A DNA stretch of 64,000 nt from assembly GCA_012960245.1 (NCBI GenBank), contig DUBO01000050.1:38039-102038 (forward strand). The letters are read 5' to 3'. The DNA comes from Candidatus Binatota bacterium (GTDB lineage: Bacteria > Desulfobacterota > Binatia > UBA1149). Numbering within the stretch: the stretch's first letter is position 1; each line of letters opens with the position of its first letter. This document shows positions 10,949 through 63,413 of this stretch, piece after piece. Position numbers and translations under genes: made by a program. Under the pieces are notes generated by a model, which was given only the letters and a program-made list of their open reading frames with translations, ran no database searches and had not been told where the DNA came from.

Positions 10949-10957
10949 GAACCCGAC

Positions 10958-12334
10958 GTGCCCGACTCAAATCAGACCGACGCCCCGATCAAGGGGATAG
11001 ACCAGCTCGTCGAATACTTTGAGGCCGGCTGTACACCGCGTGAGCAGTGGAAGGTGGGCGTAGAGTACGAGCAGCCCGTGGTCTACACGGCCAGCGGACA
11101 GGCAGTGACCTACGAGGGGCCCTCGGGCATAGGAGAACTGCTGTCCTTTTTTGCCCGCGAGTTCGGCTGGACACCGATAGAAGAAAACGGGCAGGTGATC
11201 GCCCTGCACGACAACAGGGCCTCGATCACCCTGGAGCCTGGAGGGCAGTTCGAGTTGTCGGGCGCCACCCTGTCCAGCCTGCACCAGGCCGAGAACGAAC
11301 TCAGCCGCCACCTCGAGCAAGTGAGCAGGGCCGGCCGCGAGCTCGGCCTTTCGTTTCTCGGGCTGGGCATATCTCCCAAAACCCCGCTGCCTCAAATGCC
11401 CTGGATGCCCAAGGGGCGCTACCGGGTAATGCGCGAGTTCATGCAGCGCACCGGCACGCTCGGCCACCGCATGATGCAGCAGACGGCCACCGTGCAATCC
11501 AACTTTGATTACTCGAACGAAGCCGACGCGCTGGCCAAGTTTCGCGTCGCGATGGCGGTGGCTCCGTTGCTGGTCGCGGTGTCTGCAAACTCGCCGGTCG
11601 TAGACGGTCGGCCCAGCGGTTACCGGAGCTACCGGGCACACGTGTGGAGCGATACCGACTCTGACCGCTGCGGCTACCTGCCCTTTGTTTTCAACAGCAA
11701 CTCCTTTTTCGCTTCTTACACCGACTACGCCCTCGACGTTCCCATGTACTTCGTGCTCCGGGGCGAGAACTGCGTGGATTCGGAAGGGCTGACCTTCCGG
11801 CAGTTCATGCAGAAGGGCGTGGCCGGAGAGCAGGCCACGATGGTCGACTGGACCTACCACCTGTCGACTGTATTTCCCGAAGTCAGGCTCAAAAACTGGA
11901 TCGAGGCACGCTCGGCCGACAACCAGCCTCCCCAGCTGATGCTGGCGACCCCGGCCCTGCTCAAGGGCCTGCTCTACGATGATGACTGCTTGCTGGCCGC
12001 GTGGGACCTGCTGAGGGATTGGCCGCTGGAACGCCTGGCCGAGCTGCACGAGGATGCCGCCCGCCTGGCGCTGTCAGCGAGGGTCAAAAAGCACACTCTT
12101 GGTCGCTACGGCCTCGAGTTGCTGGAAATCGCCCGTGAAGGCCTCAAGCGACAGGCCGGGGCCAATCCCGATGCCATCGATGCGCAGGGCCGCGACGAGA
12201 CACGCCATCTGGACAGCCTCGAAGACCTGCTCGTGGCTGGGCGCTGCCCGGCAGACGGGATCATCGAACTGTGGGAAGGGCCCTGGTCCGGGGACGTCGA
12301 CAAGCTGGTAGCCCAGGCCAACTGCGCCGGGTAG
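10958..12334 (+). CDS. gshA: glutamate--cysteine ligase, plant/alphaproteobacterial type (GCS2 family)
   Basis: 458 aa. KVGVEYEQPV..., LGISPK..MPWMPKGRYRVMREFMQ, QSNFDYSNEADALAKF, NSPVVDGRPSGYRSYRAHVWSDTD. This resembles plant-type gamma-glutamylcysteine synthetase. Confidence 0.75.
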   Translation: MPDSNQTDAPIKGIDQLVEYFEAGCTPREQWKVGVEYEQPVVYTASGQAVTYEGPSGIGELLSFFAREFGWTPIEENGQVIALHDNRASITLEPGGQFELSGATLSSLHQAENELSRHLEQVSRAGRELGLSFLGLGISPKTPLPQMPWMPKGRYRVMREFMQRTGTLGHRMMQQTATVQSNFDYSNEADALAKFRVAMAVAPLLVAVSANSPVVDGRPSGYRSYRAHVWSDTDSDRCGYLPFVFNSNSFFASYTDYALDVPMYFVLRGENCVDSEGLTFRQFMQKGVAGEQATMVDWTYHLSTVFPEVRLKNWIEARSADNQPPQLMLATPALLKGLLYDDDCLLAAWDLLRDWPLERLAELHEDAARLALSARVKKHTLGRYGLELLEIAREGLKRQAGANPDAIDAQGRDETRHLDSLEDLLVAGRCPADGIIELWEGPWSGDVDKLVAQANCAG

Positions 12335-12830
12335 TGGCCATTCCGCCATTTCTCCTAACCCCGTGCTGGAACGCGCTTTTCGCTCACCCCCCGTTCGGGT
12401 AGTGCAAAAAAATACCATTAGTGTGCAGAAACCTATTGACAGGTAGCGCATCAGGGTGGTTTATTAACGCCCATCGGGAGCGATTTTTTTCAGGGGTGAC
12501 CAGCCACCGGTTCTTCTACCCCCCCCTGCCCGAAAGGCCGCGTGATACGGGCCGGCAGAGATACAGGGGAGTTTTACAACAATAAACGGCCAGCCGGGTA
12601 CCGAAAGGATAAGGGCTGGAAAAAGCGGGCGCCACCCATGGCTCCAGGAAAACGATAGAACGAAGGTAAATAAGAGCTACTTATCATGAGGCTGAAACTA
12701 TTTCATGATATGTTATCTTCCAATACCTACGTAACTGGGGTTTAATAACGCCATGCATCATAGATGCTGAACTCTTAACGCGACCAGCTCGAAGTCCTGC
12801 CCCGGACTTTAAAACAGGGCGGACAGTTTC

Positions 12831-13244
12831 ATGAATTTATTTGAACCAGACACCTTGTTGCCGGCCCAGTTTTTTGCAGCTTTCACCCGTGAAGGCGGAA
12901 TGGTACGCGAGCGCAGGCTGATGCTTGCCGTGCTGCAGGACGCCGTAGAGTGCTACCAGAAATACGCCCTGGCCCGCGACCCACGTGGCAAGCTGCTTTT
13001 TGACGATGCCGCAGACTGGATAGACGCCGATGAGCGCGAATGGTCGTTCTCCTACGTCAACATCTGTGAAGTGCTTGGGCTCAATCCCGAATACATCCGC
13101 CGCGGGCTTTCGCGCTGGAGGCAGAGCAGGGCGCCGATCAAGCGCAACACCGCTCGCATCGTATCGCTGTTGGACCGCGAAGCGCTGTTGACGCAATTCG
13201 ACGAAGCCGAACCCGTTGCCGCTGAGTTGCAGGAAGCCTCCTGA
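12831..13244 (+). CDS. small acidic hypothetical protein (137 aa), paralog of CDS 55609-56103
   Basis: ATG start preceded by an ~500-bp ORF-free AT-rich leader and followed by a strong intrinsic terminator. Shares EPDT..PAQFF..RLMLAVLxDAv..fQ..W.D.DE.EWsFS..ICE.LgL.PeYiRRGLs.WR with the 164-aa protein at 55.6 kb. No known family recognised. Confidence 0.65.
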   Translation: MNLFEPDTLLPAQFFAAFTREGGMVRERRLMLAVLQDAVECYQKYALARDPRGKLLFDDAADWIDADEREWSFSYVNICEVLGLNPEYIRRGLSRWRQSRAPIKRNTARIVSLLDREALLTQFDEAEPVAAELQEAS

Positions 13245-13388: not shown

Positions 13389-13883
13389 ATGGTTTGGCTA
13401 TTCAGAGCAGCGACAGCTACCACCCTGGCCGTACTCCTCTGCGCTGTAACGGCAACAGCCGAAACGGGCAGTCGCCCGGCCACCGCTCCAGGCGACCAAC
13501 AGGCGCTGGAACCCGACACCGCCGATATTGCAGAAAAGGCCTGGAGTGCCCTTGAGTACGACTCTGCAGCCCAGCGCAACTGGGCCACCGACCAGAAAGC
13601 CGTGCGCATGCATTTCGCTCGGACCCCGGACGAAGCAACACGGATGTTTCGCGAACAGTACGGACCCGACTCCATACTGACCCGCAGCGTTTCGGCGGTC
13701 GCGGTCATCACTAACGCGGCTGAACGCAGTGCCCAGCTACCGCTCGACAGCATCAACTCGGTTACCGAAAAAGTAAGCGGGGTGGCCCAGGAGATGGCCG
13801 GAATAGGCAGACTCCCGACTATAAAGCTGAAATCAAAGGTGGACAGCCACCATTTCGGAGTCAGCCTGACGACGAAGTGGTAA
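13389..13883 (+). CDS. secreted hypothetical protein
   Basis: ATG start. Signal peptide MVWLFRAATATTLAVLLCAVTATAETG, then a ~140-aa mature domain with no recognised motifs. Confidence 0.45.
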   Translation: MVWLFRAATATTLAVLLCAVTATAETGSRPATAPGDQQALEPDTADIAEKAWSALEYDSAAQRNWATDQKAVRMHFARTPDEATRMFREQYGPDSILTRSVSAVAVITNAAERSAQLPLDSINSVTEKVSGVAQEMAGIGRLPTIKLKSKVDSHHFGVSLTTKW

Positions 13884-15027
13884 GCGCCTGCGGGCGATTC
13901 CCGAGGCCGGCCGACTTGCCGTCTCCCTCGTCAACCGGGTCGCCGACCTGGTTGAATTGCGGCGACTCGCCGAGGTCTTCTTCGGGCCAATCAACATAAC
14001 CAACGTCGGTAGGAATACCGTTCATGGCCTCGATCGCTGCCTCGAGTAGTTCGGGGTCAACGTGGGCCACGACCCCCATTTTTTTTATCAACTCGTTTGC
14101 CGTCGCCCAGGCTCCGGGCTGCAGCCCGTAAATGTCCTCGTGCACTTCGACCAGCACACGGCCACGGCGAAGCCCCACCTTGACCGGCTGGTAGGTAAAA
14201 CGCCCCTTCGAGCCGACCTTGATGAGTGGAAACACCGCCTCGATGTCTTCGGGGTACAAGCGCACACAACCGTGACTGACCTGCATACCCACTCCCCAGG
14301 TCTTGTTGGTGCCGTGGATGGCGTAGGAGGGCAGGGTGAGCTCTATGCGGTGACGGCCCAGCGGGTTTTCAGGGTCCCCCCCGGCAATGGTGAAATCCCT
14401 GCGGCCGAGTTCTTTCAAACGCTCAGCGCGAATTGACGCCGGTATCACCCAGGTCGGGTTCGTGGTCTTACCGCGCACCCGGAAATCGGCCTCCGGCGTC
14501 TGCCAGCCCTGCCGCCCAAGACCAACCGGGTAAGTGATCACCGTTGACGAACGCGCACCCTTGCGCGGCGAGGGCAGGTAGTAGTACAGCCTCATCTCCG
14601 GGATGTTAACCACCAGTCCTTCGTAGCGACCACTGGGCAGGATCCACTCTGACGGCAGTAGCAGGTCCACCCCCCCGTCGGGCAGCCAGGGGTCGACTAC
14701 CGGGTTGGCCCCGAGGATTTCGTTGTACCCGAGGTCGTACTGCCGGGCGAGTTCAAGCAGGGTATCGCCGCCCACCACGCGGTGAGTATGGCTGCTACCC
14801 ACCACGGTCTGCGTGCCCTGCGAGCCCTTGTCGAGACCGGAAACGAAAAAGTGGCTGACGATCTCGCGGGGAGGCCAGCCCTTCTCTTCAAAACCGCGGG
14901 GCTCCACATCGACTCGCTCGTCGATCAAAGCAGCGGTCTCCGCCCTGGCAGAACGGCTGAGCAGCGGCGCGGCTGCCAGCAACAAGCCCGCCACCAGCAG
15001 TATTCTTCTCAGCGGGGTCAGTCGCAT
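13861..15027 (-). CDS. L,D-transpeptidase (YkuD/ErfK family) with LysM domain
   Basis: Signal peptide. LysM segment HRVVGGDTLLELARQYDLGYNEILGANP. Catalytic YkuD segment RIELTLPSYAIHGTNKTWGVGMQVSHGCVRLYPEDIEAVF (His...SHGC). Confidence 0.8.
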   Translation of the reverse strand: MRLTPLRRILLVAGLLLAAAPLLSRSARAETAALIDERVDVEPRGFEEKGWPPREIVSHFFVSGLDKGSQGTQTVVGSSHTHRVVGGDTLLELARQYDLGYNEILGANPVVDPWLPDGGVDLLLPSEWILPSGRYEGLVVNIPEMRLYYYLPSPRKGARSSTVITYPVGLGRQGWQTPEADFRVRGKTTNPTWVIPASIRAERLKELGRRDFTIAGGDPENPLGRHRIELTLPSYAIHGTNKTWGVGMQVSHGCVRLYPEDIEAVFPLIKVGSKGRFTYQPVKVGLRRGRVLVEVHEDIYGLQPGAWATANELIKKMGVVAHVDPELLEAAIEAMNGIPTDVGYVDWPEEDLGESPQFNQVGDPVDEGDGKSAGLGNRPQALTTSSSG

Positions 15028-16868
15028 ACCATCAACCTGCAGGAGGCCGGCAGAAGCTTAGGCAACTTCTTCAGTACTTGTCCGCGAAACACCCTGTAGG
15101 GCAACGAGCGCCCATTTATGCCGGTCACAAGGCAGTTCACCTCAAGCTCTCGCGCGGCCCGGGCCAGCCCCTCGGGCACGGTGTAAGTCGTGGTCCAGAT
15201 GGGTATCACCTGCACCCCCGCCGCCGCGGCCTGCCTGGCCGCAGAGGTGAGCGATTGTATCCCTTCTTCACTCGGAAGAGGGTCTTCTTTGCCGTACAGC
15301 ATTCCGGGCCACTCCTCGACGTAAATGCAGTATAGCGCGTTTTCACCCATACCCTTCACCCTCGCGAGCGCCTCCGCCACTACCCCGGTGCTTTCCCCGC
15401 GTACGGCCACAAGGGTCGAACTGTTGTACAGCGGCTTCAAATCCGCCGCCATCGCGAGATTGACTATCTCTGCCTGTATCTCAGGGGCGTGGGCCTCGCC
15501 CCGTTCCGACCTGCGATGGTCTTCGCGCGACACCGACGGAATGTGATGGATCGCTTCTTTAATCCAACCCTCCCTCAGTGCGATGCCGTAGATCATGCCG
15601 GCGGTGGCTATGCCCCCACCAAAGGCAGTGGCCAGTGGTTTTTCTACTATGTTCACCAGCCAGGCCACCACCACCATCGCGGTTGGCACCAGGCCCAGCA
15701 TGAATACCCAACCACGCTTCCTGTCGCGCCAGCGCAGAAGGTCGAGCCCACCCGACTCGATGGTAAACGCGCCCAGCAGGCCGAAGGCGTACATATCGCC
15801 CAGCACGCCCATCTCACCCTGCGTCACCAGCACAATCACGACGGGCACGATGGTGGCCACCAGTATGGCTATGTGCGGAGTGTTGAAGCGCGGGTTACGC
15901 CGCATCATGCGCCGGGGAACGTAGTGCAACTCGGCCAGTTTCAAGAAAACGTGGTAGGCACCGATGATAGCCGTGTTGGCCGCGAACAGCAGCAGCGACG
16001 CAGCGGTGAACACCACCGCCGTCGACAAGAACTGCACGTTGGTCTGGGCCGCGAGGTCAGAGATGAAACGTTCGCTGCCCGGTATCGATACGTTGGCGCC
16101 CACTTTTGCCACCGACAGCAAGGTGAGCATGGGCGAGGTCAACAGTATGGTGATTATCACACCCACCATGGCGAACATGGCCGTGCGCTTGACCGGTTGC
16201 CGCAACACCGGCGACAGCTGGCTGATGCTCTCCAGTCCCGAAAAGGCTAACCACGCCGCTCCAAAACCGACCAACAGCTCCCGCATGCCCAACTCGCGAA
16301 AGCCGTTAAAAAGACTGAACAGTGTTTTCCAGCCCTCGAGATCGAGGCTGGTGAGCATGACCACCAGCACGACCATGTTGGTGAGGAAGGAGGCCACTGC
16401 CATCACCAGCGAGAGCCTCGCGCTCTCCCGCACGCCCACGATGTTGACCGCCGCCAGCAGCGCCAGCCCCAGGCAGGCAAAAGCCGGTACGTTGCTAGCC
16501 ACGGTCGGGAAAACACTCGACAGGTAATAAAAACCCGAAGTGGACGAGATCGCGCCGGTCAGGAAGAAATCCACCGTGATGAACATCCCGCCCAGGGCGC
16601 CCATTCGTTCCCCGAAGGCCATCTCGCCGATCGCCACCACGCCGCCGCCGTTGGGCGTGCGCTCCACGATCTCTATGTACTTGATAGAGATGAGCACAAA
16701 TCCCACCGAAGTGAGCAGAACGAAGAAAGGAGCGTTGGTGCCTACCAGTTCGAACAGTATGCCCGGCACGTAGTAGACCGATGTCCCGATATCACAGAAC
16801 ACCACGGCCCATGCCAGCAACCACGTAAGCTGCCGTGCGCCGTCCTGGGAAGAATTGGATGCAGCCAA
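15018..16868 (-). CDS. APC-family amino acid permease fused to a C-terminal universal stress protein (UspA-like) domain
   Basis: About 12 TM segments (LAWAVVFCDIGTSVYYVPGILF...). The C-terminal ~150 aa have a USP-like alpha/beta pattern (LVAVRGESTGVVAEALARVKG...ALYCIYVEE...VNCLVTGINGRS). Confidence 0.7.
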   Translation of the reverse strand: MAASNSSQDGARQLTWLLAWAVVFCDIGTSVYYVPGILFELVGTNAPFFVLLTSVGFVLISIKYIEIVERTPNGGGVVAIGEMAFGERMGALGGMFITVDFFLTGAISSTSGFYYLSSVFPTVASNVPAFACLGLALLAAVNIVGVRESARLSLVMAVASFLTNMVVLVVMLTSLDLEGWKTLFSLFNGFRELGMRELLVGFGAAWLAFSGLESISQLSPVLRQPVKRTAMFAMVGVIITILLTSPMLTLLSVAKVGANVSIPGSERFISDLAAQTNVQFLSTAVVFTAASLLLFAANTAIIGAYHVFLKLAELHYVPRRMMRRNPRFNTPHIAILVATIVPVVIVLVTQGEMGVLGDMYAFGLLGAFTIESGGLDLLRWRDRKRGWVFMLGLVPTAMVVVAWLVNIVEKPLATAFGGGIATAGMIYGIALREGWIKEAIHHIPSVSREDHRRSERGEAHAPEIQAEIVNLAMAADLKPLYNSSTLVAVRGESTGVVAEALARVKGMGENALYCIYVEEWPGMLYGKEDPLPSEEGIQSLTSAARQAAAAGVQVIPIWTTTYTVPEGLARAARELEVNCLVTGINGRSLPYRVFRGQVLKKLPKLLPASCRLMVCD

Positions 16869-36381: not shown

Positions 36382-38865
36382 CTAGTCTCCCTCTTCCGGT
36401 GTTTCTATATCGGCCATCGACTCGGTGTCGACCTCTGCCACCAGCGCCACCGAGGCCACTTTCTCGCCACCACCGGAGTCTACCTTCACCAGGCGCACGC
36501 CCTGGGTCTGGCGCCCGATGACACGGATATCACCCACGCCCATGCGAATGAGCTTGCCGCCGTCTGTAACCAGTACGACGTCGTCATCAACATCGGCGAT
36601 CTGTACCACTCCCACGACCTGGCCGGTCTTGGGGGTAACCTTCATGGTGTAAACACCCTTGGCGCCGCGCTTCACCAGCCGGTAGGTCTCGATCTTGCTG
36701 CGCTTGCCGTATCCGTTGGCCGACACCGTGAGCAGCGTGGCTCCAGCCTCGACGACCTCCATCGACACCACGACGTCACCCTTACCCAGGGTGGCACCGC
36801 GCACTCCACCGGCCGTACGGCCCATCGAACGAACATCGGTCTCCTTGAAACGCACCAGCATTCCGTTGCGGGTCGACAGCGCCATTTCCTTGGAGCCGTT
36901 GGTGATGCGTACCGAGATCAACTCGTCCTTGCCCACAAGGTTGATGGCCCTTATGCCGTTGGTCCGGGGTCGCGAAAAATCCATCAATGGCGTTTTCTTC
37001 ACCGTCCCGGCCCGCGTTGCAAAGAACACGAACTGGTCCTTGGTGAACTCACGCACCGCGAGAAACGCCGACAACTCCTCGCCGGGCTGAAGGGGCAGCA
37101 GGTTCACTATCGCCTTGCCACGCGCCACGCGCCCAGCCTGGGGCAGCTCATGGACCTTTCGCCAGTACACCCGGCCCCGGTTGGTGAAAAACATCAGGTA
37201 GGAGTGGGTGGAGGCCACGAACATGTGCTCGATAAAGTCCTCGCCCTTGGTCCCGGCCCCGGTTTTACCGCGGCCACCGCGCCGCTGCTGCCTGTACAGC
37301 GAAGTCGCGTTACGCTTGATGTAACCCTCGTGCGAGACGGTAACCACCATCTCTTCGTCCACGATCATGTCCTCGATGCCGATGTCGTCGGTAGCCTCGG
37401 CTATCTCGGTACGACGTTCGTCACCGTATTTCAGCGCCAACTCTTCAAGCTCGGTGGAAATAATTTTCAACACCTCGGCCTTGTCCGAGAGTATTTTCTT
37501 CAGCCGGCGTATCAGTGCACGAACTTCCTTATGCTCTTGAAGAATCTTGTCGCGCTCGAGTCCGGTCAAGCGCTGCAGGCGCATGTCGAGAATGGCCTGG
37601 GCCTGCACCAATGACAGCTCGAATTTATCGACCAGTTGCTCTCTTGCCGTAACGGCGTCCTTGGCCTTGCGGATGAGCTTGATGACCGCATCGAGGTTGT
37701 CCAGCGCGATCTTAAGGCCCTCTAGTATGTGCAGCCTCGCCTCGGCCTTGCGCAGGTCAAACGCGGTGGCCCGGATAACCATCTCGCGCCGGTGATCAAT
37801 AAAGTGGACCAGCGCCGACTTGAGGTTGAGCAACTTCGGCACACCGTCCACCAGGGCGACCATGCGCACCGAGAAGGTCTGCTGCATCTGCGTGTGCTTG
37901 TAGAGGTTGTTGAGCACCACCAGGGGCACAGCGTCCTTTTTGAGCTCCACCACGATACGCATGCCATCACGGTCCGACTCGTCACGGAGGTCGGAGATAC
38001 CCTCGATTTTCTTGGCGTTGACCAGTAGCGCAATCTTCTCGATCAGCACCGACTTGTTCACCTGGTAGGGGATCTCGTTGATCACGATGCGCGAGCGCCC
38101 GGTACGTGAATCGGTCTCGGTGCTGGCGTTGGCCCGTACCTGCAGCTTGGCCCGCCCGGTCTGGTAGGCTTCCTTGATGGGCGCCCTCCCGAATATGGTG
38201 GCACCGGTAGGAAAATCCGGCCCCGTGACGTGCTTCATAAGCCCGTCGATCGAAATCTCCGGGTCGTCGATGAGGGCGCGCAGCGCAGCGCAGATTTCAC
38301 GCAGGTTGTGAGGGGGGATCGACGTCGTCATGCCCACTGCGATACCGGTCGCGCCGTTAATGAGAAGGTTGGGCACGCGCGCAGGCATAACCGTGGGCTC
38401 GGCCGTGCTGCCATCGTAGTTGGGAATGAACTCGACGGTTTCCTTGTCGATGTCGACGAGCATTTCACCCGCCAGCCGTGACATGCGGACCTCGGTGTAA
38501 CGCATGGCCGCAGCGGCGTCGCCGTCTACAGAACCAAAGTTGCCCTGGCCGTCAACGAGCAGGTAGCGCAGCGAAAAATCCTGGGCCATGCGAACGATGG
38601 TGTCGTAAACCGCCTGGTCGCCATGCGGGTGGTATTTACCGATAACGTCACCGACCACGCGCGCTGATTTCTTCGGCGGTTTATTCCAATCGTTGCTGAG
38701 ATCGTACATCGCGTAGAGCACGCGACGGTGCACGGGTTTCAATCCATCGCGCACGTCGGGCAGCGCACGACCGATGATGACACTCATCGCGTAGTCCACG
38801 AAGGACGCACGCATCTCGTCCTTGATCTCTATGGGCAGCTCGGGGCGGCGTACGTTAGCTTCCAT
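36382..38865 (-). CDS. gyrA: DNA gyrase subunit A
   Basis: [42 protein letters not shown]... with the active-site Tyr region and a C-terminal beta-pinwheel. Confidence 0.95.
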
Positions 38866-38876
38866 GCTTCATACCG

Positions 38877-41432
<2,556 letters not shown>

Positions 41433-55608: not shown

Positions 55609-56103
55609 TCAGGCAGTTTTGCGTATGCGGCGCCGCTCGCGTTTGGGGTTGATGCTGTGGCGACGTCCGTTGACGCGTCGGAAAGGGAAACGGTAGACCT
55701 GTCCCTCGACGCCGGCCAACCTGGCCCGGTCACGCCAGGTCTCCAGGCCCCTGCGAAGGTAGTCGGGCTCCATGTCCAGCGCCTGGCAGATACTCTCAAA
55801 CGAGAAGGCCCAGTCCATGTCTTCCGAATCCAGCCATGAGTCGACCGCGGCTTCGTCTTCAGAGGGCGGCAGCGGGATGCTGCCACCGCGGAAGACGTTG
55901 CGTTGGAACGAGGCGATCGCGTCTTCGAGCACGGCGAGCATCAGGCGTTTTTCCGGCACGAGCGAGGACTCGTCAAGGGGGTGGGTAAAGAACTGGGCGG
56001 GGCTCACCGTGTCAGGTTCGACCATGGTAAGGGCCGGGTCTTCTATGCATACGGTGCGTGATTTTCTCGGCTCAACGGTCTCGGTTTTTTGCTGCTCACT
56101 CAT
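55609..56103 (-). CDS. small acidic hypothetical protein (164 aa), paralog of CDS 12831-13244; last gene of the merR/diiron operon
   Basis: AAGGAG-N6-ATG. Shares VEPDTVSPAQFF...EKRLMLAVLEDAI..FQ...WLDSEDMDWAFSFESICQALDMEPDYLRRGLETWR with the 137-aa protein. Basic C-terminal tail (KRERRRIRK). Confidence 0.65.
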   Translation of the reverse strand: MSEQQKTETVEPRKSRTVCIEDPALTMVEPDTVSPAQFFTHPLDESSLVPEKRLMLAVLEDAIASFQRNVFRGGSIPLPPSEDEAAVDSWLDSEDMDWAFSFESICQALDMEPDYLRRGLETWRDRARLAGVEGQVYRFPFRRVNGRRHSINPKRERRRIRKTA

Positions 56104-56151
56104 TTTATGCTCCTTTTTTCTCTCTCTACTCGATTTCGTACGATAAACGGC

Positions 56152-57231
56152 TCAGGCCACTAGCGATGTCTCGGCTTGGGCTTCGGTGTTGTACTCGTTC
56201 ACCAGCGCTGCCGGGTCGGCGAACTCTTCTTCAGACGAGGGCATGCTCTCGAACTCGAGGATGTCGAGTTCTTCGAATCCCCTTCTCAGCTTGTCGTTGA
56301 GCAGCCCGAGTTTCTTGACGTTGGGTACGATCTTGGAAAACATCGCGCGGCGGAAGGCCTTGGACATTTCGTCGTGATATTCGATCTCAACGCAGGCTTC
56401 GACGTCCATGCCCATCTTCTCGTAGACCTCGCGCTGCAGCAGTCGATCGCGCATCAGGCGGCAGCCTTCGTAGACAAATTCCACGCGCTCGTCGACCTCT
56501 GCCTCGCTCAACTCGCGGTAGTAGTCCTTCAGGCTGAGTACGCCGAAGGCAACATGGCGCGACTCGTCTTTCATGACCATGGCCGTGAGTTCCTTGATCA
56601 GCGGCTCGGTGCTGTAGTCACGCATGGTCTGGAAGGCGGCCAGCGCCAAGCCCTCCACGAGTATCTGCATGCCGAGGTACTTCATGTCCCAGCGTGAGTC
56701 GCTGAGAATCTGGTCGAGGAGGGTCTTGAGCTCCGGGTTTATCGGGTAGACGATCTCGATCTTTTCATGCAGGTAACGGTCGTAGACCTCCACGTGACGG
56801 GCTTCGTCCATGACCTGGGTCGCCGCGTAGAGTTTTGCGTCTATGTTGGGCACCGAGTCCACGATCTGCGCGGTTGCCAGCAGGGCGCCCTGCTCACCGT
56901 GCAGAAACTGCGAGAGTGTCCACGCCATCGACTCGTGGTTGAGTTGGACTTTCTCGCGCTCGGTGAGACGGGTCCAGTGCGAGGTGCCGGAAATGGCTGT
57001 TTCTTCTACCGGGAAAAAAGGCTTTTCCGGGTCAACGTCGATTGACCAGTCGAGGTAGGTCTCGCCGTCCCACTGTGCCTGCTTGGCCATGCGGTAGAGC
57101 CGCACGAGGTCACCGCGCAAGTGATCGTAGTCCGCTAGAAAGGCGCTGTCGTAGCTGTGGGCCACGCTGTCGAAGGCCCGGGCTACCAGCGGCGGAGTGG
57201 TTTGGTCAGCGATTGTTTCTTTCCGGGGCAT
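56152..57231 (-). CDS. ferritin-like diiron-carboxylate oxygenase, AurF/CmlI-like (two EX29DEXRH motifs)
   Basis: HGEqgall...(29 residues)...MDEARHVEVY and VEGLAL...(29 residues)...KDESRHVAFG, i.e. two E-X29-DExRH half-sites as in p-aminobenzoate N-oxygenase-type diiron enzymes. Soluble, 359 aa. Acyl-ACP-desaturase-like is an alternative. Confidence 0.6.
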   Translation of the reverse strand: MPRKETIADQTTPPLVARAFDSVAHSYDSAFLADYDHLRGDLVRLYRMAKQAQWDGETYLDWSIDVDPEKPFFPVEETAISGTSHWTRLTEREKVQLNHESMAWTLSQFLHGEQGALLATAQIVDSVPNIDAKLYAATQVMDEARHVEVYDRYLHEKIEIVYPINPELKTLLDQILSDSRWDMKYLGMQILVEGLALAAFQTMRDYSTEPLIKELTAMVMKDESRHVAFGVLSLKDYYRELSEAEVDERVEFVYEGCRLMRDRLLQREVYEKMGMDVEACVEIEYHDEMSKAFRRAMFSKIVPNVKKLGLLNDKLRRGFEELDILEFESMPSSEEEFADPAALVNEYNTEAQAETSLVA

Positions 57232-57258
57232 TTTTCTTATTTCTCTTCCGGCTGCTCT

Positions 57259-58053
57259 TCAGTCGTTGGTACCCGTATTTTCAGTTTCGTTACCGAGCCT
57301 GATTTCCGCCATGGCGCGTAGTATCATCTTGCGCCTCAAGAGTGCCATGAACTGCTCGGCGTGCTTCATGGCGGCTATTGCTATTTCGGGCACGCGCTCG
57401 GGGTCGGAATGGTCGGTCACGCCCCGCGTGAAAATTTTGATTTCTTCGCGGGCGAGCTTTTCGAGCGCTTCCACGTAGATGGGCAGCGTAGTCTCGTAGG
57501 GGAACAACTCCGGTCCCATGCCGGCCTCGCGCATGGCCTGGAAGTTTTCGAGCAGCAGAAGGTCATCGCCCTCTACGCAGCTCACGCCTTCGCGTTGCAT
57601 GGGGGTGATGATTCCCAGGCGAACGCAGAAGTCGAAACGATCCCGGTCCACGCCGTAGCGGGCCAGGGCTTCTTCTACCGGCACCGGCGGCTGGTCGGGC
57701 GCGTAATGAATTTCTTCGTACAGTGTTCCCTCGATGCCCAGCAGGGTGCTGACCTCGCGCTCGCTCACCACCTCGGAGTCGTGCTCGAGTATGGCCTTGA
57801 TGACGTCCAGGGGCAGGAAACGCTTCTGCTGCAGTTCCTTGATCACGCGGATGCGCTCAATAAACGAGTGATCGTACCAGGCCATGTTGCGTCCGGTCTT
57901 CACCGTGGGTTTGGGCAGAAGGCCTTCGCGGATGTAGAATTTTATGGTGCCGGTAGACACGCCGGTCTCGCGCGCGAGATCGGAGATCTTGTGCAGGCCC
58001 GTGGTGCTCGGGTGATTGTCGGTGTCGGTGTCGGTGTTTCTGGTTCTCGTCAT
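57259..58053 (-). CDS. MerR-family transcriptional regulator with long C-terminal domain
   Basis: HTH LHKISDLARETGVSTGTIKFYIREGLLPKP...WYDHSFIERIRVIKELQ (MerR N-domain). TDTDTD repeat at the N-terminus. The ~170-aa C-terminal domain has no B12 motif. Confidence 0.75.
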   Translation of the reverse strand: MTRTRNTDTDTDNHPSTTGLHKISDLARETGVSTGTIKFYIREGLLPKPTVKTGRNMAWYDHSFIERIRVIKELQQKRFLPLDVIKAILEHDSEVVSEREVSTLLGIEGTLYEEIHYAPDQPPVPVEEALARYGVDRDRFDFCVRLGIITPMQREGVSCVEGDDLLLLENFQAMREAGMGPELFPYETTLPIYVEALEKLAREEIKIFTRGVTDHSDPERVPEIAIAAMKHAEQFMALLRRKMILRAMAEIRLGNETENTGTND

Positions 58054-58216
58054 GGTAAGTAGAAAGTGCGACTATCCACTTACTATAACCAGGGCATGGC
58101 TGTCAAGGGATTTCTCGGAACGGCAGAACTTTTTTTTCCGGGCCAAAAACGGCTGGGAACCAATAAAATACTGGCCTTTTTGACAATTCACCCTTTGCCG
58201 AGCAGTCTGCTCGCCA

Positions 58217-59857
58217 GTGTCTGAGTCGTTTCAGCCAGCTCCAGAAACGGCCCCCCCGACCAGGGGGGAGCGTCTTGGCCAGGCGGCCGAGGGCTGCTTT
58301 GACCTCGTCGTGGTGGGCGGAGGGATCACCGGCGCGGGGGTCGCCCGCGAGGCGTCGGCCCGTGGATTATCTACCCTGCTGCTCGACCGTGGAGACTTTG
58401 CCGGGGGCACCAGCAGCCGTTCGTCCAAGCTCATTCACGGCGGTATACGCTACCTCGCCCAGGGTGACGTAGCCCTGGTGCGAGAGGCTTCGCGCGAGCG
58501 CGCGGTATTGCACCGCATGGCTCCGCACCTGGCCGTGCCCATCAACGTTGTTTCGCCCGCGCGATCGAAAGCCGGCTTGGCCAAGCTGGCAACCGGCATG
58601 TGGACCTTCCGCCGATTGTCGGCCGACGGTGAAGATTACAAGGTGCTGGGGTCACGCCAGACGGTTGAGTTTGAGCCCTTGCTGGCCGATCGCGGCATCG
58701 CTGGCTCGGTGGTGTTTCGCGAGTACCTCACCGATGACGCGCGCCTGGTACTCGAGACGGTGCTGAGCGCTGCTGATTCTGGCGCGGTGGTTCTCAACTA
58801 CACCGAAGTCACAGGTATAGAGATGGGAGAGGCTGGCGCCATGCTGTCGGCCCGCGACGTACTGGGAGCCGACGACCTGGTGATCAGGGCGCGCTGCGTG
58901 GTAAACGCTGCCGGCCCCTGGTTCGACGAGGTGGCCGGACTCGCCGACGCTTCGCAGCGGCCCCGCCTGCAGTTGACCCGGGGTATTCACGTTGTGGTCA
59001 AGGGCGAGGCCCTGCCGTTGGCGAGCATGCTGGCCTTGCGCACGAGCGACAATCGCACCGCGTTTGCGCTTCCTCGAGGCGGCGCGTGCTACGTGGGGAC
59101 GACCGACACGCTCTACGAGGGCGACCCGGCCGAGCCCGATATCGAGGGTGCCGACGTTGCCTACCTGCTCGACGCGGTCGAAGAGACACTCGGTTTGCGC
59201 TTGCGGGCCGACGACCTGCTCGGTTGCTGGGCGGGGGTGCGGCCGCTCATGGCATCGCCCGGTCGCAAGGTGTCGGAGATATCGCGGCGCGACGAGCTCA
59301 GTAGCGGCCCCGGTCCGCTGGTGTCGATAGCTGGTGGCAAGCTGACGACCTTTCGCCGCATGGCCGAAAGGGTCGTTGACGCCGCTGTCAAACAGGCCGA
59401 CCTGAAGCCGAGTGCCGGGCCGCCGGGCGACACGCCGTTGGTGGGAGGCAGCGCTGACCAGCAACTCGAGGCCCGGGCCTGCGCTGTCGGCCTCGAGGAC
59501 AGCGAGCTAGAGCAGCGTTTGTGGGCTGTCTACGGCGCCCGGGCCCCGGGGCTACTGCGCTGTATCGCCGATGACCCCGCCCTGGGCAGAGCCGTGGGCG
59601 GTCTCAAAGACCTGACCCTGGCCGAGCTCGAGCACTGCGTTGAACAGGAAATGGTGCTCACCCTCGATGACCTGTTGCGACGCCGTGTGCGCACTGCGAT
59701 GTTCGACGCCGAGGCGGCCATGGCTGCTGCGCCCGAGGCCGCTCGTGCGCTGGCGGTGAGATTGGGCTGGGACGATGACCGGCGGCGGCGGGAAGTGGAC
59801 GTTTTTGTCTCGAGAACCCGTGCCCAGCTTTCTGCGGCGCGCGACGCAGCAAAATAG
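58217..59857 (+). CDS. glpD: FAD-dependent glycerol-3-phosphate dehydrogenase (GlpD-type)
   Basis: FDLVVVGGGITGAGVAREASARGLSTLLLDRGDFAGGTSSRSSKLIHGGIRYLAQGDVALVREASRERAVLHRMAPHLA, near-collinear with the E. coli GlpD N-terminus. Confidence 0.85.
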   Translation: MSESFQPAPETAPPTRGERLGQAAEGCFDLVVVGGGITGAGVAREASARGLSTLLLDRGDFAGGTSSRSSKLIHGGIRYLAQGDVALVREASRERAVLHRMAPHLAVPINVVSPARSKAGLAKLATGMWTFRRLSADGEDYKVLGSRQTVEFEPLLADRGIAGSVVFREYLTDDARLVLETVLSAADSGAVVLNYTEVTGIEMGEAGAMLSARDVLGADDLVIRARCVVNAAGPWFDEVAGLADASQRPRLQLTRGIHVVVKGEALPLASMLALRTSDNRTAFALPRGGACYVGTTDTLYEGDPAEPDIEGADVAYLLDAVEETLGLRLRADDLLGCWAGVRPLMASPGRKVSEISRRDELSSGPGPLVSIAGGKLTTFRRMAERVVDAAVKQADLKPSAGPPGDTPLVGGSADQQLEARACAVGLEDSELEQRLWAVYGARAPGLLRCIADDPALGRAVGGLKDLTLAELEHCVEQEMVLTLDDLLRRRVRTAMFDAEAAMAAAPEAARALAVRLGWDDDRRRREVDVFVSRTRAQLSAARDAAK

Positions 59858-59887
59858 AACAGCGGCGCTGAGCTGTGGAGACGAGCT

Positions 59888-61297
59888 ATGACTGAACAGG
59901 TAGAAGGGCTGGACAAGCTGGCGGCCGACGCTCCCGGTCTCGAAATAGTGACCGAGGGCGAGCTGCTCGAGGAAACCGGCCGCGACACCTGGATGCGCAG
60001 TCTCATGCAGGCACGCGCGAGTGGGCGCGAACCGCGGGCGGGGGCGGTGCTCAGACCCGGCAACACCGCGGAACTTTCGGCAGCCCTGCGCTGGGCCGGG
60101 GAGACCGGCACACCGGTGCTGCCCTACGGGCACGGCTCGGGCGTGTGTGGCGGCGTGTTGGCGTCGGCGGGTAGCGTGGTAGTCGACCTGCGGCGCATGG
60201 ATGCCGTGCTCAATATAGACGACGTTTCGTTGAGGGCGACCGTCCAGGCTGGCGTGCGGGGCTCCGACTTTGAGGCTGCTCTCAACGAGCGCGGTCTGAC
60301 GATGGGGCACTGCCCGCAGTCGATCGAGATTTCGAGTGTCGGCGGTTGGTGCGCCACGCGCGCCTCGGGCCAGTTCTCTACCCTGTATGGAAACATCGAG
60401 GATATGTTGCTGGGCTGCGAGTTCGTACTGCCCGGGGGCAGGGTACTCAGGCTGGCCAGTTCCACCCGTTCGGCCACCGGCCCCGATCTTAAGCACATGT
60501 TGATGGGCAGCGAGGGCACACTGGGCATATTCAGCGAGCTTACTTTCCGTGTGCATCCCTTGCCTGACTGCAGGCGCGGCCAGGCCTTCACCGTGCCCGA
60601 TTTTGCCGCTGGCGTGGAATCACTCAGGCTGATAATGCGCGGGGGGTGGCGGCCGGCGGTTACCCGCCTGTACGATGCGGCCGAAGCGGGTCGTCATTTT
60701 GCCGGCATGGCCGAGGGCGCACCTGCCCTGCTGTTTCTGAGCGAGGGGCCCGAGTCGCTCGTGCAGGCTGAGTCTGCGGCCATAGCCGCCATAGTGGAAA
60801 CGCAGGGCGGCACGCCGCGCGGCGAAGAGCCGGTTCTCAGCTGGATGGAGCACCGCAACCAGGTGCCCACTTTTGACTCCCTGCTCGACCAGGGGCTGGT
60901 GGCCGACACCATAGAGGTGGCCATTGCCTGGGACAGGCTTTCGGCCCTCTACGACGATGTAAGCAAAAAGGGCGGGGAGATAGAGGACATGCTCCTCATG
61001 TCGGGGCATGTTTCGCACTGCTATACCCACGGTGCGAATATTTATTTTACCTTCGTAGCGTCCCAGCCCGATCTCGAGCGAGGCCTGGAGATTTACGACC
61101 GGGCCTGGGAAACCACCATGCGCGCAGTTCACGAAGCGGGCGGCACGATCGCTCACCATCACGGCATCGGCCGCGTGAGACGCGGCTGGTTGAGAGCCGA
61201 GCTGGGCGAGGGCGTCGAGTTGTTGCGTGCCCTCAAGGACTCGTTGGACCCCGGGGGCATCATGAATCCGGGCGTGCTGCTGGAGCCCGCCGAATGA
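59888..61297 (+). CDS. FAD-linked oxidase (FAD_binding_4 + FAD-oxidase_C); alkyl-dihydroxyacetonephosphate-synthase-like with HHH motif
   Basis: RPGNTAELSAALRWAGETGTPVLPYGHGSGVCGG (FAD-binding PCMH). C-terminal GGTIAHHHGIGRVRRGWL...SLDPGGIMNPG. The HHHG(I/V)G(K/R) block is characteristic of AGPS rather than GlcD (GEHGIG). Confidence 0.65.
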   Translation: MTEQVEGLDKLAADAPGLEIVTEGELLEETGRDTWMRSLMQARASGREPRAGAVLRPGNTAELSAALRWAGETGTPVLPYGHGSGVCGGVLASAGSVVVDLRRMDAVLNIDDVSLRATVQAGVRGSDFEAALNERGLTMGHCPQSIEISSVGGWCATRASGQFSTLYGNIEDMLLGCEFVLPGGRVLRLASSTRSATGPDLKHMLMGSEGTLGIFSELTFRVHPLPDCRRGQAFTVPDFAAGVESLRLIMRGGWRPAVTRLYDAAEAGRHFAGMAEGAPALLFLSEGPESLVQAESAAIAAIVETQGGTPRGEEPVLSWMEHRNQVPTFDSLLDQGLVADTIEVAIAWDRLSALYDDVSKKGGEIEDMLLMSGHVSHCYTHGANIYFTFVASQPDLERGLEIYDRAWETTMRAVHEAGGTIAHHHGIGRVRRGWLRAELGEGVELLRALKDSLDPGGIMNPGVLLEPAE

Positions 61298-62763
61298 AAA
61301 CCGCGCTGCTCGCGCTCGACGCGGGCACCACCCAGATAAAGGCGGTTGCCTACGATGAGAAGGGCACGGTGCTGGCCCGCGCCGTGAGGCCGGTGACCAC
61401 CATTTATCCGGGGCCCGGGCTGGTGGAGCAGGACGCGTCGCAGGTGCTGGCCGCGTCGGTCGAGGTACTCACAGAGGTGCTGGGCCGGACGGGCGGCAAG
61501 GCCGAGGGAGTAAAGGCCCTGGGCATAGCCAACCAGCGGGGCTCGATAGTGGCCTGGGACTCGGTCAGCACGGAGCCCTTGTCGCCGATGATAAGCTGGC
61601 AGGACACGCGCGGGGCTGAGCGTTGCGAGCAGTTGCAGGCGGCCGGGTTTTTCGTGATGCCGGGGATGGCGGCGAGCAAGGCCGAGTGGATCATGGCCAA
61701 CATCGAAGCCGCGGCCACGGCAGCAGCCGCGGGCCGGCTGCGCATGGGAACGCCCAACTCCTGGTTGGTGGCAGGCCTCTGTGGAGGCTTGCACACCTGC
61801 GATCACTCCAACGCTTTTCCCAGCGGCCTGTACGACTTTGCCGATGGTGACTGGAGCGATGCCCTGCTGGTGGAGCTTGGCCTCGAACGCGCCATGTTAC
61901 CCGAGCTCGTAGACTCCAAGCTGGTGACCGGAGGCCTGCAGGCGGAACTGCTCGGTGCCCCGGTGCCGCTGGGCTGTACTTCGGCCGATCAGCAGGCCTC
62001 GTTGTTCGGGCTCGATTGCCTTGTTGAGGGCAGCGCCAAGTGCACGCTGGGGACCTCGGCTTCGGTCAATCTCAATACCGGGGGCAAGCTGCGGCTCGGT
62101 GGGCCGGGAACTTTTCCGCTGGTGGCCTGGAGAGAGGACGGCGTGTCGACTTACTGTATGGAGGGGCAGGTCCTCACCGCAGGCGAAGCCCTGCGTTGGG
62201 CGGCCACTGCGCTGGGCTTTGACGGTGGCCCGGCGGCCCTGGCAGCACAGGCCGAAACAGCCGACGATTGCGGGGGCGCCTGGATGATCCCTGCCCTCCA
62301 CGGCCTCGGTACTCCCTGGCAGAATGATGTGCAGGCCCAGCTGGGAGGGCTTTCGGCGGCCGTGGGTCGCGCGCAGCTCGCGCGCGCGAGCGTTGAAGGA
62401 GTGGCCCACCGTGTGGTCGATGCTGCCGAGGGGCTGTGGCAAACCCCCGGCGAGACGCTATCTACCGAGCCATTACCCCTCGAAGTGCTGCGGGTTGATG
62501 GTGGGGCCTCGAGCAGCGAGATGTTGCTACAGATGATCGCTGACTTTGCAGGCACGCGGGTCGAGCGCAGCAGTGATCTCGACGGTGGCGCCCGTGGCGT
62601 TGCCCTGATGGCGGCCGCAGCGGTGGGACTCGAGCTGGGCGAGGGCGGAGATGGCTGGTCGTTTGACCGGGCATTTGAACCCGCCCTGACCGAAGAGCGA
62701 AGGCTCGAGCAGCGCGCGACCTGGAAGGCTCGCGTGCAGGCCCTGGTCGAGGTCAGCAGCTGA
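61294..62763 (+). CDS. FGGY-family carbohydrate kinase (glycerol kinase-like)
   Basis: ALDAGTTQIKAVAYDEKGTVLARAVRPVTTIYPGPGLVEQDASQV...NQRGSIVAWD. C-terminal ...VDGGASSSEMLLQMIADFAG. Confidence 0.75.
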   Translation: MKTALLALDAGTTQIKAVAYDEKGTVLARAVRPVTTIYPGPGLVEQDASQVLAASVEVLTEVLGRTGGKAEGVKALGIANQRGSIVAWDSVSTEPLSPMISWQDTRGAERCEQLQAAGFFVMPGMAASKAEWIMANIEAAATAAAAGRLRMGTPNSWLVAGLCGGLHTCDHSNAFPSGLYDFADGDWSDALLVELGLERAMLPELVDSKLVTGGLQAELLGAPVPLGCTSADQQASLFGLDCLVEGSAKCTLGTSASVNLNTGGKLRLGGPGTFPLVAWREDGVSTYCMEGQVLTAGEALRWAATALGFDGGPAALAAQAETADDCGGAWMIPALHGLGTPWQNDVQAQLGGLSAAVGRAQLARASVEGVAHRVVDAAEGLWQTPGETLSTEPLPLEVLRVDGGASSSEMLLQMIADFAGTRVERSSDLDGGARGVALMAAAAVGLELGEGGDGWSFDRAFEPALTEERRLEQRATWKARVQALVEVSS

Positions 62764-62765
62764 CC

Positions 62766-63413
62766 GTGTCTATCCGCCTGCTGGTGTTCGATTGTGACGG
62801 CGTGCTGTTCGAATCAGGTGACGCCAACATCGGTTTTTATAACGAAGTGCTGCGCCGTGTCGGCGAGCCGGCGATGACGTCGGCGCTCGAAGAAAAATGT
62901 CACGCAATGTCTTCGCCCCAGTTCTTCGAAGTCTACTTCGCCGATCGTCCCGACATGGCTGCGAGGGTACGCGAGATGGCGATCGCTACCGACTACGAAC
63001 CGTTCTACTCGTTGATGCATCCCGCCCCGGGCCTGCACGACCTGCTCGACGCTTTGCGCGCCGAGGGTTACGACACGGCCATGGCCACCAACCGTGGCCG
63101 CACGGTGGGCCGTCTTCTCGAGCTTTTTGAGCTCGACAGTCGTTTTGATTTCAGCATCGGTACGCTCGACGTCGAGTTACCCAAGCCGGCTCCGGACATG
63201 CTGCTCAGTTGTCTCGAGCGTTTTGCCCTGGAGGCGCGTGAAGCCGTTTACCTGGGCGACCAGGACTGCGACCTCCAGGCGGCTACCGCTGCGGGGCTGC
63301 ATTTTGTGGGAGTCGGGCCGGTTGTCGCCCACGCACAGTTGAGTATTGAAGCTATCGGTGAGCTGCCCGGCCTGCTCACGCTGCTCAACGAGCCTGGCGG
63401 CAGCGCGACTTGA
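62766..63413 (+). CDS. HAD-superfamily hydrolase (phosphatase, PGP-like)
   Basis: LLVFDCDGVLFES (motif I DxDG), ...ATNRGR..., YLGDQDCDLQAA (motif IV). Confidence 0.75.
   Translation: MSIRLLVFDCDGVLFESGDANIGFYNEVLRRVGEPAMTSALEEKCHAMSSPQFFEVYFADRPDMAARVREMAIATDYEPFYSLMHPAPGLHDLLDALRAEGYDTAMATNRGRTVGRLLELFELDSRFDFSIGTLDVELPKPAPDMLLSCLERFALEAREAVYLGDQDCDLQAATAAGLHFVGVGPVVAHAQLSIEAIGELPGLLTLLNEPGGSAT

Follow-up and report, generated by a model that had tools for sequence, protein, structure and literature searches.

A long MerR-type regulator paired with a diiron-carboxylate protein in a probable, apparently autorepressed operon of a Candidatus Binatota bacterium

We analyzed a three-gene locus within a 64,000-nucleotide stretch of DNA from a Candidatus Binatota bacterium (assembly GCA_012960245.1, contig DUBO01000050.1, forward-strand positions 38,039 to 102,038; hereafter the window, with coordinates counted from its first letter). 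The locus encodes a long MerR-type regulator, a predicted diiron-carboxylate protein, and a small helical protein (Table 1). The reading we favor, and consider reasonably probable, is that the three genes form an operon whose core is the MerR regulator and an O2-activating diiron protein, that MerR represses its own operon from a palindrome at the promoter, and that the small protein belongs to the regulatory side. Literature searches returned no description of a MerR–diiron pairing. The novelty is modest but real: a long-MerR/diiron module with a candidate operator, inside a very large uncharacterized diiron clade.

The genes run in the same direction on the minus strand and are separated by 27 bp (MerR–diiron) and 48 bp (diiron–small), just as had been described in an earlier reading made from the letters of the DNA (the sequence-only reading), and both Shine-Dalgarno elements named there are present. 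The GC content at third codon positions was 0.72–0.78 in all three open reading frames (ORFs), which is of coding type (window 62% GC). Promoter and terminator prediction returned nothing on the minus strand between the genes of the trio, Rfam reported zero RNA families at the locus, and the PADLOC defense models found nothing beyond a generic helix-turn-helix (HTH) match. We infer co-transcription, which makes the trio a probable single operon.

The regulator and the diiron gene keep company well outside the window. A metagenome scan with the MerR alignment alone yielded 80 loci, and the diiron gene adjoined MerR in 43 of them, in three gene orders: MerR>diiron(>small) in five, diiron>MerR in 34, and MerR>diiron with a distant MerR (35%–41% identity) in four. 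Another 19 loci had MerR>small only, three had MerR alone with neither partner in at least 1.1 kb of flank on both sides, and the contig was too short to tell in the remaining 15. The full trio is conserved in L001, L083-85, L090-92, and L098, with MerR identity of 55%–97% and intergenic gaps of 14–63 bp. The two genes of the diiron>MerR loci lie −4 to 34 bp apart, and their flanking genes are unrelated between loci; a Pfam scan of these neighbors returned unrelated functions (SIMPL, glyoxalase II, UvrD, acyl-CoA dehydrogenase, TPR, glutathione S-transferase, and acyltransferase). A remote member, P0253, sits in an unrelated context. The tight spacing within the diiron>MerR loci, in varying surroundings, suggests a self-contained two-gene module, and we propose that the conserved core would be these two genes, a long MerR regulator and a diiron-carboxylate protein. 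The sequence-only reading had seen a regulated oxidative module in which MerR belongs to the enzyme. It was right on this point: the three gene orders, the many unrelated contexts, and the operator-like palindrome at the first gene (see below) tie MerR functionally to the diiron gene.

Upstream of the MerR gene, a −35-like TTGACA, kept as TTGAC(A) in all related loci, is followed after 17 nt by a −10-like GTAAGT. The trio would be transcribed from this TTGACA-N17-GTAAGT promoter, which escaped a simple sigma-70 scan on account of its non-canonical −10. A 25-bp palindrome, AAGTGGATAGT-CGC-ACTTTCTACTT, overlaps the −10-like element and the predicted start. It is unique in the window (0 expected by chance) and conserved in L001, L083, L084, L085, L088, and L090-92, with a perfect 11-3-11 dyad in L084. 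Palindromes stand just past TTGAC(A), upstream of the first gene, in each arrangement. MerR>diiron loci have GATAG..CTATC-type dyads resembling that of the window, and diiron>MerR loci have a different palindrome, TGCGTAGTA-N3-CTACGCACTACGCA, at the equivalent place upstream of the diiron gene, so that the sequence differs by MerR subgroup. Since such palindromes are restricted to MerR-encoding loci, the putative operator appears to travel with the first gene and to co-vary with the MerR subgroup. This is the pattern that autoregulation by MerR predicts, and it suggests as much.

The mode of control can be judged from geometry. A classical MerR activator promoter has its dyad centered in a 19–20 bp spacer; here the spacer is 17 nt, the palindrome lies at −10/+1, and relatives differ in how far it stands from the −35 (15 to 23 nt). 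The position and the variable distance argue for repression rather than spacer distortion, and the operon is probably autoregulated and repressor-controlled. MerR would bind the palindrome over the −10 and the start, repressing the operon, its own gene included, until a signal releases it. The geometry would be that of HspR or CarH-type MerR repressors, not that of the classical 19-bp-spacer activators.

Two variants of the upstream region were also observed. The TGCGTAGTA-N3-CTACGCACTACGCA element upstream of the diiron gene is conserved and composite, its single left arm being joined by two right arms in tandem, 15–23 nt past TTGAC(A) (L033, L117, L119, L123, L132, L135, L136, L140, L147, L148, L150, and L163). 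The GATAG..CTATC palindrome is absent from the −10 of the MerR>small loci L086, L087, L100, and L103-L107. A different dyad, (G)ATGACGC-N3-GCATCAT(C), is conserved among them; it precedes the −35 by ∼25 bp, between MerR and the GlpD-type gene. Some of these loci have CRP-family genes after the small gene.

The MerR protein has a winged HTH at residues 22–91 (Pfam MerR_1, PF13411, E 1.1e-18) and a degenerate second MerR-like segment at ∼125–190, for which a PDB profile search gave weak second-HTH matches at profile positions 116–176. The MerR-type matches in the PDB were 2dg6, 4ua1, and CadR. The C-terminal part is helical and has no family match; searched alone, the last 170 aa matched no Pfam family. 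None of the NCBIfam equivalogs for MerR, CueR, ZntR, CadR, SoxR, NmlR, HspR, and FtsR was reached (15–42 bits against cut-offs of 104–261); the best was FtsR, with 42 bits against a cut-off of 150 over residues 32–181. Like HspR and CarH/LitR, the regulator is encoded in the operon that it apparently controls, with the palindrome over the core promoter and not in a 19-bp spacer, and its gene follows the paired gene in 34 loci, as with HspR. It differs from CarH/LitR in being without a B12-binding domain, and from HspR in its NCBIfam score (22 bits against a cut-off of 105); the operator sequence is presumably unrelated to the HspR HAIR motif. FtsR/Rv1828 provided the best NCBIfam match, one that reaches past the HTH, together with a faint Rv1828_C match on the L088 ortholog, but these actinobacterial proteins belong to another phylum and another gene neighborhood, and there is no ftsZ link here.

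The same pairing could mean that the main role of the diiron protein is sensing or co-regulation, its O2, iron, or redox state being read by MerR via protein contact, with the small protein as a further adaptor. Contacts of this kind have precedents in DnaK with HspR and in glutamine synthetase with the MerR-type GlnR/TnrA. The proposal fits stop and start codons that overlap or nearly abut in either gene order, a self-contained pair that recurs in unrelated contexts without pathway genes, and a large MerR C-terminal part that matches no ligand-binding family. It also fits the 34 loci with the enzyme gene ahead of the regulator gene, as in dnaK-hspR operons, an analogy from general knowledge. 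However, such a MerR is missing from the vicinity of most diiron-clade members, which means that the diiron protein has to have an independent function, and the group B loci retain MerR and the small gene in the absence of the diiron gene. We think a sensory main role unlikely. Slightly more doubtful still is a full signal-transduction module in which the diiron center senses O2, iron, or oxidants and contacts MerR directly, the small protein being an adaptor or a second DNA- or RNA-binding output. Such a module would be of a kind not described before, more than an enzyme with its regulator and not part of natural-product synthesis.

The adjacency might also be inherited synteny, with MerR regulating another target such as the divergent glpD-type gene. 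The whole neighborhood is indeed syntenic among the closest relatives, and MerR and the GlpD gene diverge from a common 163-bp intergenic region. But the pair recurs outside that synteny in three gene orders, and the palindrome is found at the MerR/diiron promoter, accompanying whichever gene of the pair comes first, which leaves this explanation very improbable.

We next consider what the diiron protein is. No exact match to it was found in the public collection, and a 97%-identical relative, P0001, was used in its place. Pfam AurF (PF11583) matched well above its cut-off (62.6 bits against 29.6; model positions 10–282 of 282), and acyl-ACP desaturase (PF03405) was neither a model match nor the closest fold; of the two models that the sequence-only reading had proposed to compare, it is thus AurF that matches. 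Sub-threshold Pfam matches were to the R2 protein of ribonucleotide reductase (RNR), aldehyde decarbonylase, and phenol hydroxylase. The two metal motifs, which had been read as a double EX29DExRH, are both present (E113...D142-E143-A-R-H146 and E193...D222-E223-S-R-H226) with the spacing off by one: they follow E-X28-DExRH, equivalent to E-X29-ExxH, and a regular expression with 29 residues before the D fails. The predicted ligands are E113, E143, H146, E193, E223, and H226. An alignment of 25 family members had ∼95 invariant positions, including the six ligands, H111, Y150, and a C-terminal VPNVKKLGLL segment. The protein also has the four-helix-bundle core of the ferritin-like superfamily (R2/AurF fold), in which the E...(D/E)ExxH ligand pair occurs twice.

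The AurF site has seven ligands, Glu101, Glu136, His139, Glu196, His223, Glu227, and His230, of which His223 is the third histidine (PMC11775713). We verified the AurF sequence against 3chh_A and aligned it to our family profile with hhalign. E143/H146 paired with AurF E136/H139, E193 with E196, and E223/H226 with E227/H230. AurF His223 fell on Val219, which is invariant in the 25 members, so that the predicted site is of the classical 2-His/4-carboxylate type. The double E...DExRH motif is shared across the entire ferritin-like diiron-carboxylate superfamily. AurF itself reached only E 2.4 against the family profile. The N-oxygenase signature of AurF/CmlI that had been read into the motifs is therefore not borne out: with the third histidine absent, filing the protein as an AurF-type N-oxygenase is unwarranted despite the Pfam pass.

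No solved structure is close. In the PDB profile search with the family profile, a de novo designed helix bundle came first, and the best natural matches were proteins like the cyanobacterial-type aldehyde-deformylating oxygenase (ADO) and R2-like ligand-binding oxidase (R2lox) proteins (E about 1e-5). The comparison figures for the diiron protein were 22.0 for AurF (278 residues aligned), 22.0 for RNR R2, 21.3 for R2lox, 20.9 for CmlI, 20.1 for ADO, and 13.6 for acyl-ACP desaturase. By sequence and by fold, the protein is equally distant from AurF, RNR R2, R2lox, and ADO. ADO is also shorter, at ∼230 aa without the N- and C-terminal extensions of the diiron protein, and its model is far below cut-off (TIGR04059, 18 bits against 223).

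The invariant Tyr150 lies four residues past the ligand His146, where class Ia/Ib R2 carries its radical tyrosine. In the PDB profile-search alignments, the corresponding residue of R2lox and ADO-like proteins is Phe. Judged by position, Tyr150 may be redox-active; its place in the radical-Tyr position does not by itself define R2 membership.

An R2-like radical-bearing or Mn/Fe protein (an R2lox-like oxidase or radical donor), not an oxygenase, would be a different assignment for the middle gene. R2lox is its top NCBIfam match, but the scores are far under the curated cut-offs both there (NF006200, 39.5 bits against 194) and for class I RNR R2 (PF00268, 23.5 bits against a gathering score of 33.6). 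R2lox further differs by its Phe in place of Tyr150, the first ligand here is Glu and not Asp, and the context holds no reductase large subunit, with no R1-type partner nearby. We give this assignment little credence. On our preferred reading, the diiron protein would be soluble and O2-activating, with an R2/AurF fold and a four-carboxylate/two-histidine site. Once induced, it would carry out a two-electron oxidation of a probably non-arylamine substrate, and hydroxylation- or oxidase-type chemistry, as in R2lox, ADO, and monooxygenases, would be likelier than N-oxygenation.

That the middle gene encodes an AurF/CmlI-type arylamine N-oxygenase in an inducible secondary-metabolism-like module is the least probable of these explanations: the third histidine that sets the AurF/CmlI site apart is absent, direct sequence similarity is negligible, the window locus has no biosynthetic cluster supplying an arylamine, and the >160 related loci have no conserved neighbors beyond MerR, the small gene, or a distant paralog in Streptomyces. 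The contrast drawn by the sequence-only reading with the secondary-metabolite clusters in which such enzymes are usually found falls away as well, because the clade is widespread, with >8,000 scored homologs across phyla at 50%–60% identity, mostly in stand-alone, single-gene loci.

All 8,000 scored candidates were significant as homologs of the diiron protein. Identity was 55%–63% in Myxococcota, Dadabacteria, and Bdellovibrionota and ∼50% in Streptomyces, Nonomuraea, Acidimicrobiia, Methylomirabilota, Rhodospirillales, Chloroflexia, and others, and the only names given to clade members were "ferritin-like domain-containing protein" and "hypothetical protein." Clustering the neighborhoods of 80 genome loci fetched via the diiron protein, with a simple ORF caller that also took antisense ORFs in the GC-rich loci, revealed no conserved partner; the sole recurring neighbor was a 23%-identical divergent paralog in Streptomyces. 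A rough neighbor-joining tree without support values placed the MerR-linked diiron genes in three separate clades, with unlinked genes beside them. This suggests that MerR was kept with or recruited to the enzyme in some lineages, most members being without it.

Two other arrangements were seen in the clade. The diiron gene stands head-to-head with the distant paralog (21%–25% identity) in 20 Streptomyces loci (L015, L017-L019, L023, L024, L031, L032, L037, L038, L042, L055, L058, L061, L062, L071-L073, L079, and L081), several of which have a TetR-type regulator alongside in place of MerR. Three Rhodospirillales loci (L048, L056, and L060) have two diiron copies, ∼47% identical to the query. 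They are separated by ∼2.5–3.5 kb, and the other strand encodes a conserved protein of ∼340 aa in this interval.

The third gene of the operon is tied to the regulator more than to the enzyme. In Binatia-type relatives, the small gene directly follows MerR whether the diiron gene is present or not, and the 19 MerR>small loci are without a diiron gene, which speaks against an accessory of the oxygenase. Because it is retained with MerR when the diiron gene is absent, the small protein would most likely belong to the regulatory side, as a co-regulator, an adaptor, or a nucleic-acid-binding partner. Its conserved blocks are PEKRLMLAVLEDAIASFQR, W-FSF-IC-AL-EP-YLR-GL-W, and a basic tail, YRFPFRRVNGRRHSI. 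It had been called a small acidic paralog from an unannotated family. The family is indeed without annotation, and a second copy does lie in the window at 12813–13244 (+; 37% identity, E 2e-19), but the acidity is mild (isoelectric point 5.55) and the C-terminal tail strongly basic. The second copy lacks the YRFPFRRVNGRRHSI tail and is flanked by a GCS2-type glutamate-cysteine ligase (10949–12334) and a YkuD L,D-transpeptidase (13861–15057), a placement shared by L089. A HMMER profile search found 8653 clusters at 50% identity with E ≤ 1e-3 (4397 with E ≤ 1e-10). The core PEKRLMLAVLEDA...W-FSF-IC-ALG-P-Y-R-GL-W is common to this wider family, and the YRFPFRRVNGRRHSI tail is confined to the MerR-linked subgroup and its nearest relatives. 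Family members had no match in Pfam, NCBIfam, or the PDB, and the predicted helical fold had no informative fold neighbor.

A neighbor-joining tree of MerR, likewise without support values, intermixed the trio and MerR>small loci, and the outgroup MerR clades were diiron-linked; the MerR–diiron link is therefore probably ancestral. Tentatively, the small gene would have been added to the two-gene module in the Binatia-type lineage, some sublineages of which would afterwards have lost or relocated the diiron gene. Loss or relocation of the diiron gene in group B appears, again tentatively, more parsimonious than insertion. Insertion of the diiron gene into a MerR–small pair had been a candidate and was dropped once the more distant MerR clades proved to be diiron-linked.

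Several points weigh against autorepression of a regulator–enzyme operon as we propose it. From the diiron side the association is sparse: a MerR homolog occurs in just three of the 82 loci fetched via the diiron protein (L001 and L002, near-identical to the window, and L033, from a Binatia metagenome-assembled genome), and hence the enzyme does not need this MerR. The promoter and co-transcription are deduced from the DNA; the −10 is non-canonical, and the MerR mRNA would have a 5′ untranslated region of ∼18 nt without a Shine-Dalgarno sequence. The palindrome could instead fold as an RNA hairpin and mask the AUG (z = −4.3). This is less likely, since transcription is predicted to start within the palindrome and relatives whose arms differ show no compensatory changes. 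It is from adjacency and composition that we suggest regulation or nucleic-acid binding as the role of the small protein, and a hint of the substrate, sought among the neighboring genes, was not found there.

Those neighbors include a GlpD-type dehydrogenase, an FAD oxidase, an acyl-CoA dehydrogenase, an alcohol dehydrogenase, and a CNNM transporter. The Binatia-type loci share their wider synteny, with glycerol kinase, FAD oxidase, and GlpD flanking one side; the opposite flank has acyl-CoA dehydrogenase, alcohol dehydrogenase, and a CNNM-type transporter. Divergent from MerR in the window, 58217–61297 (+) encodes the GlpD-type FAD dehydrogenase (DAO and DAO_C) and then an FAD-linked oxidase (FAD_binding_4 and FAD-oxidase_C), followed further along by a glycerol kinase, assigned by synteny with relatives, and a HAD hydrolase at 62679–63413. 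This conserved run looks like a glycerol or glycerol-phosphate block. The GC skew turns at ∼42–44 kb, with its cumulative minimum at ∼42 kb, and the chromosomal replication origin probably lies inside the window, ∼12 kb from the operon; the oriC-proximal setting first suspected from sequence agrees with this turn and with the nearby dnaA, gyrB, and gyrA.

Table 1. Positions of the operon, its predicted signals, and landmark genes in the window
Feature	Position	Strand	Remark
Small helical protein gene	55609..56103	-	164 aa
Shine-Dalgarno AAGGAG	56110..56115	-	6 nt ahead of small-gene ATG at 56103
Diiron-carboxylate protein gene	56152..57231	-	359 aa
Shine-Dalgarno-like GGAAGAG	57243..57249	-	11 nt ahead of diiron ATG at 57231
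MerR regulator gene	57259..58053	-	264 aa
25-bp palindrome (putative MerR operator)	58057..58081		ends 3 nt before MerR ATG
-35-like hexamer TTGACA	58101..58106	-
GlpD-type gene	58217..59857	+	divergent from MerR
gyrB and gyrA	36382..41432	-	adjoin dnaA
dnaA	42923..44356	-

These results carry a caution for annotation: a PF11583 match or a double E...DExRH motif should not be read as evidence of an N-oxygenase, given that the discriminating third histidine is absent across the whole diiron clade. If our reading is true, a MerR subfamily apparently works from an operator at −10/+1, and a small-protein family that numbers thousands of clusters and is without counterpart in Pfam, NCBIfam, or the PDB is at least partly tied to it. 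A very large, strongly conserved clade labeled just "ferritin-like domain-containing" or "AurF" would now have a dedicated regulator and a candidate operator attached to it, and the inducing signal of MerR would offer an experimental handle on the function of that clade.

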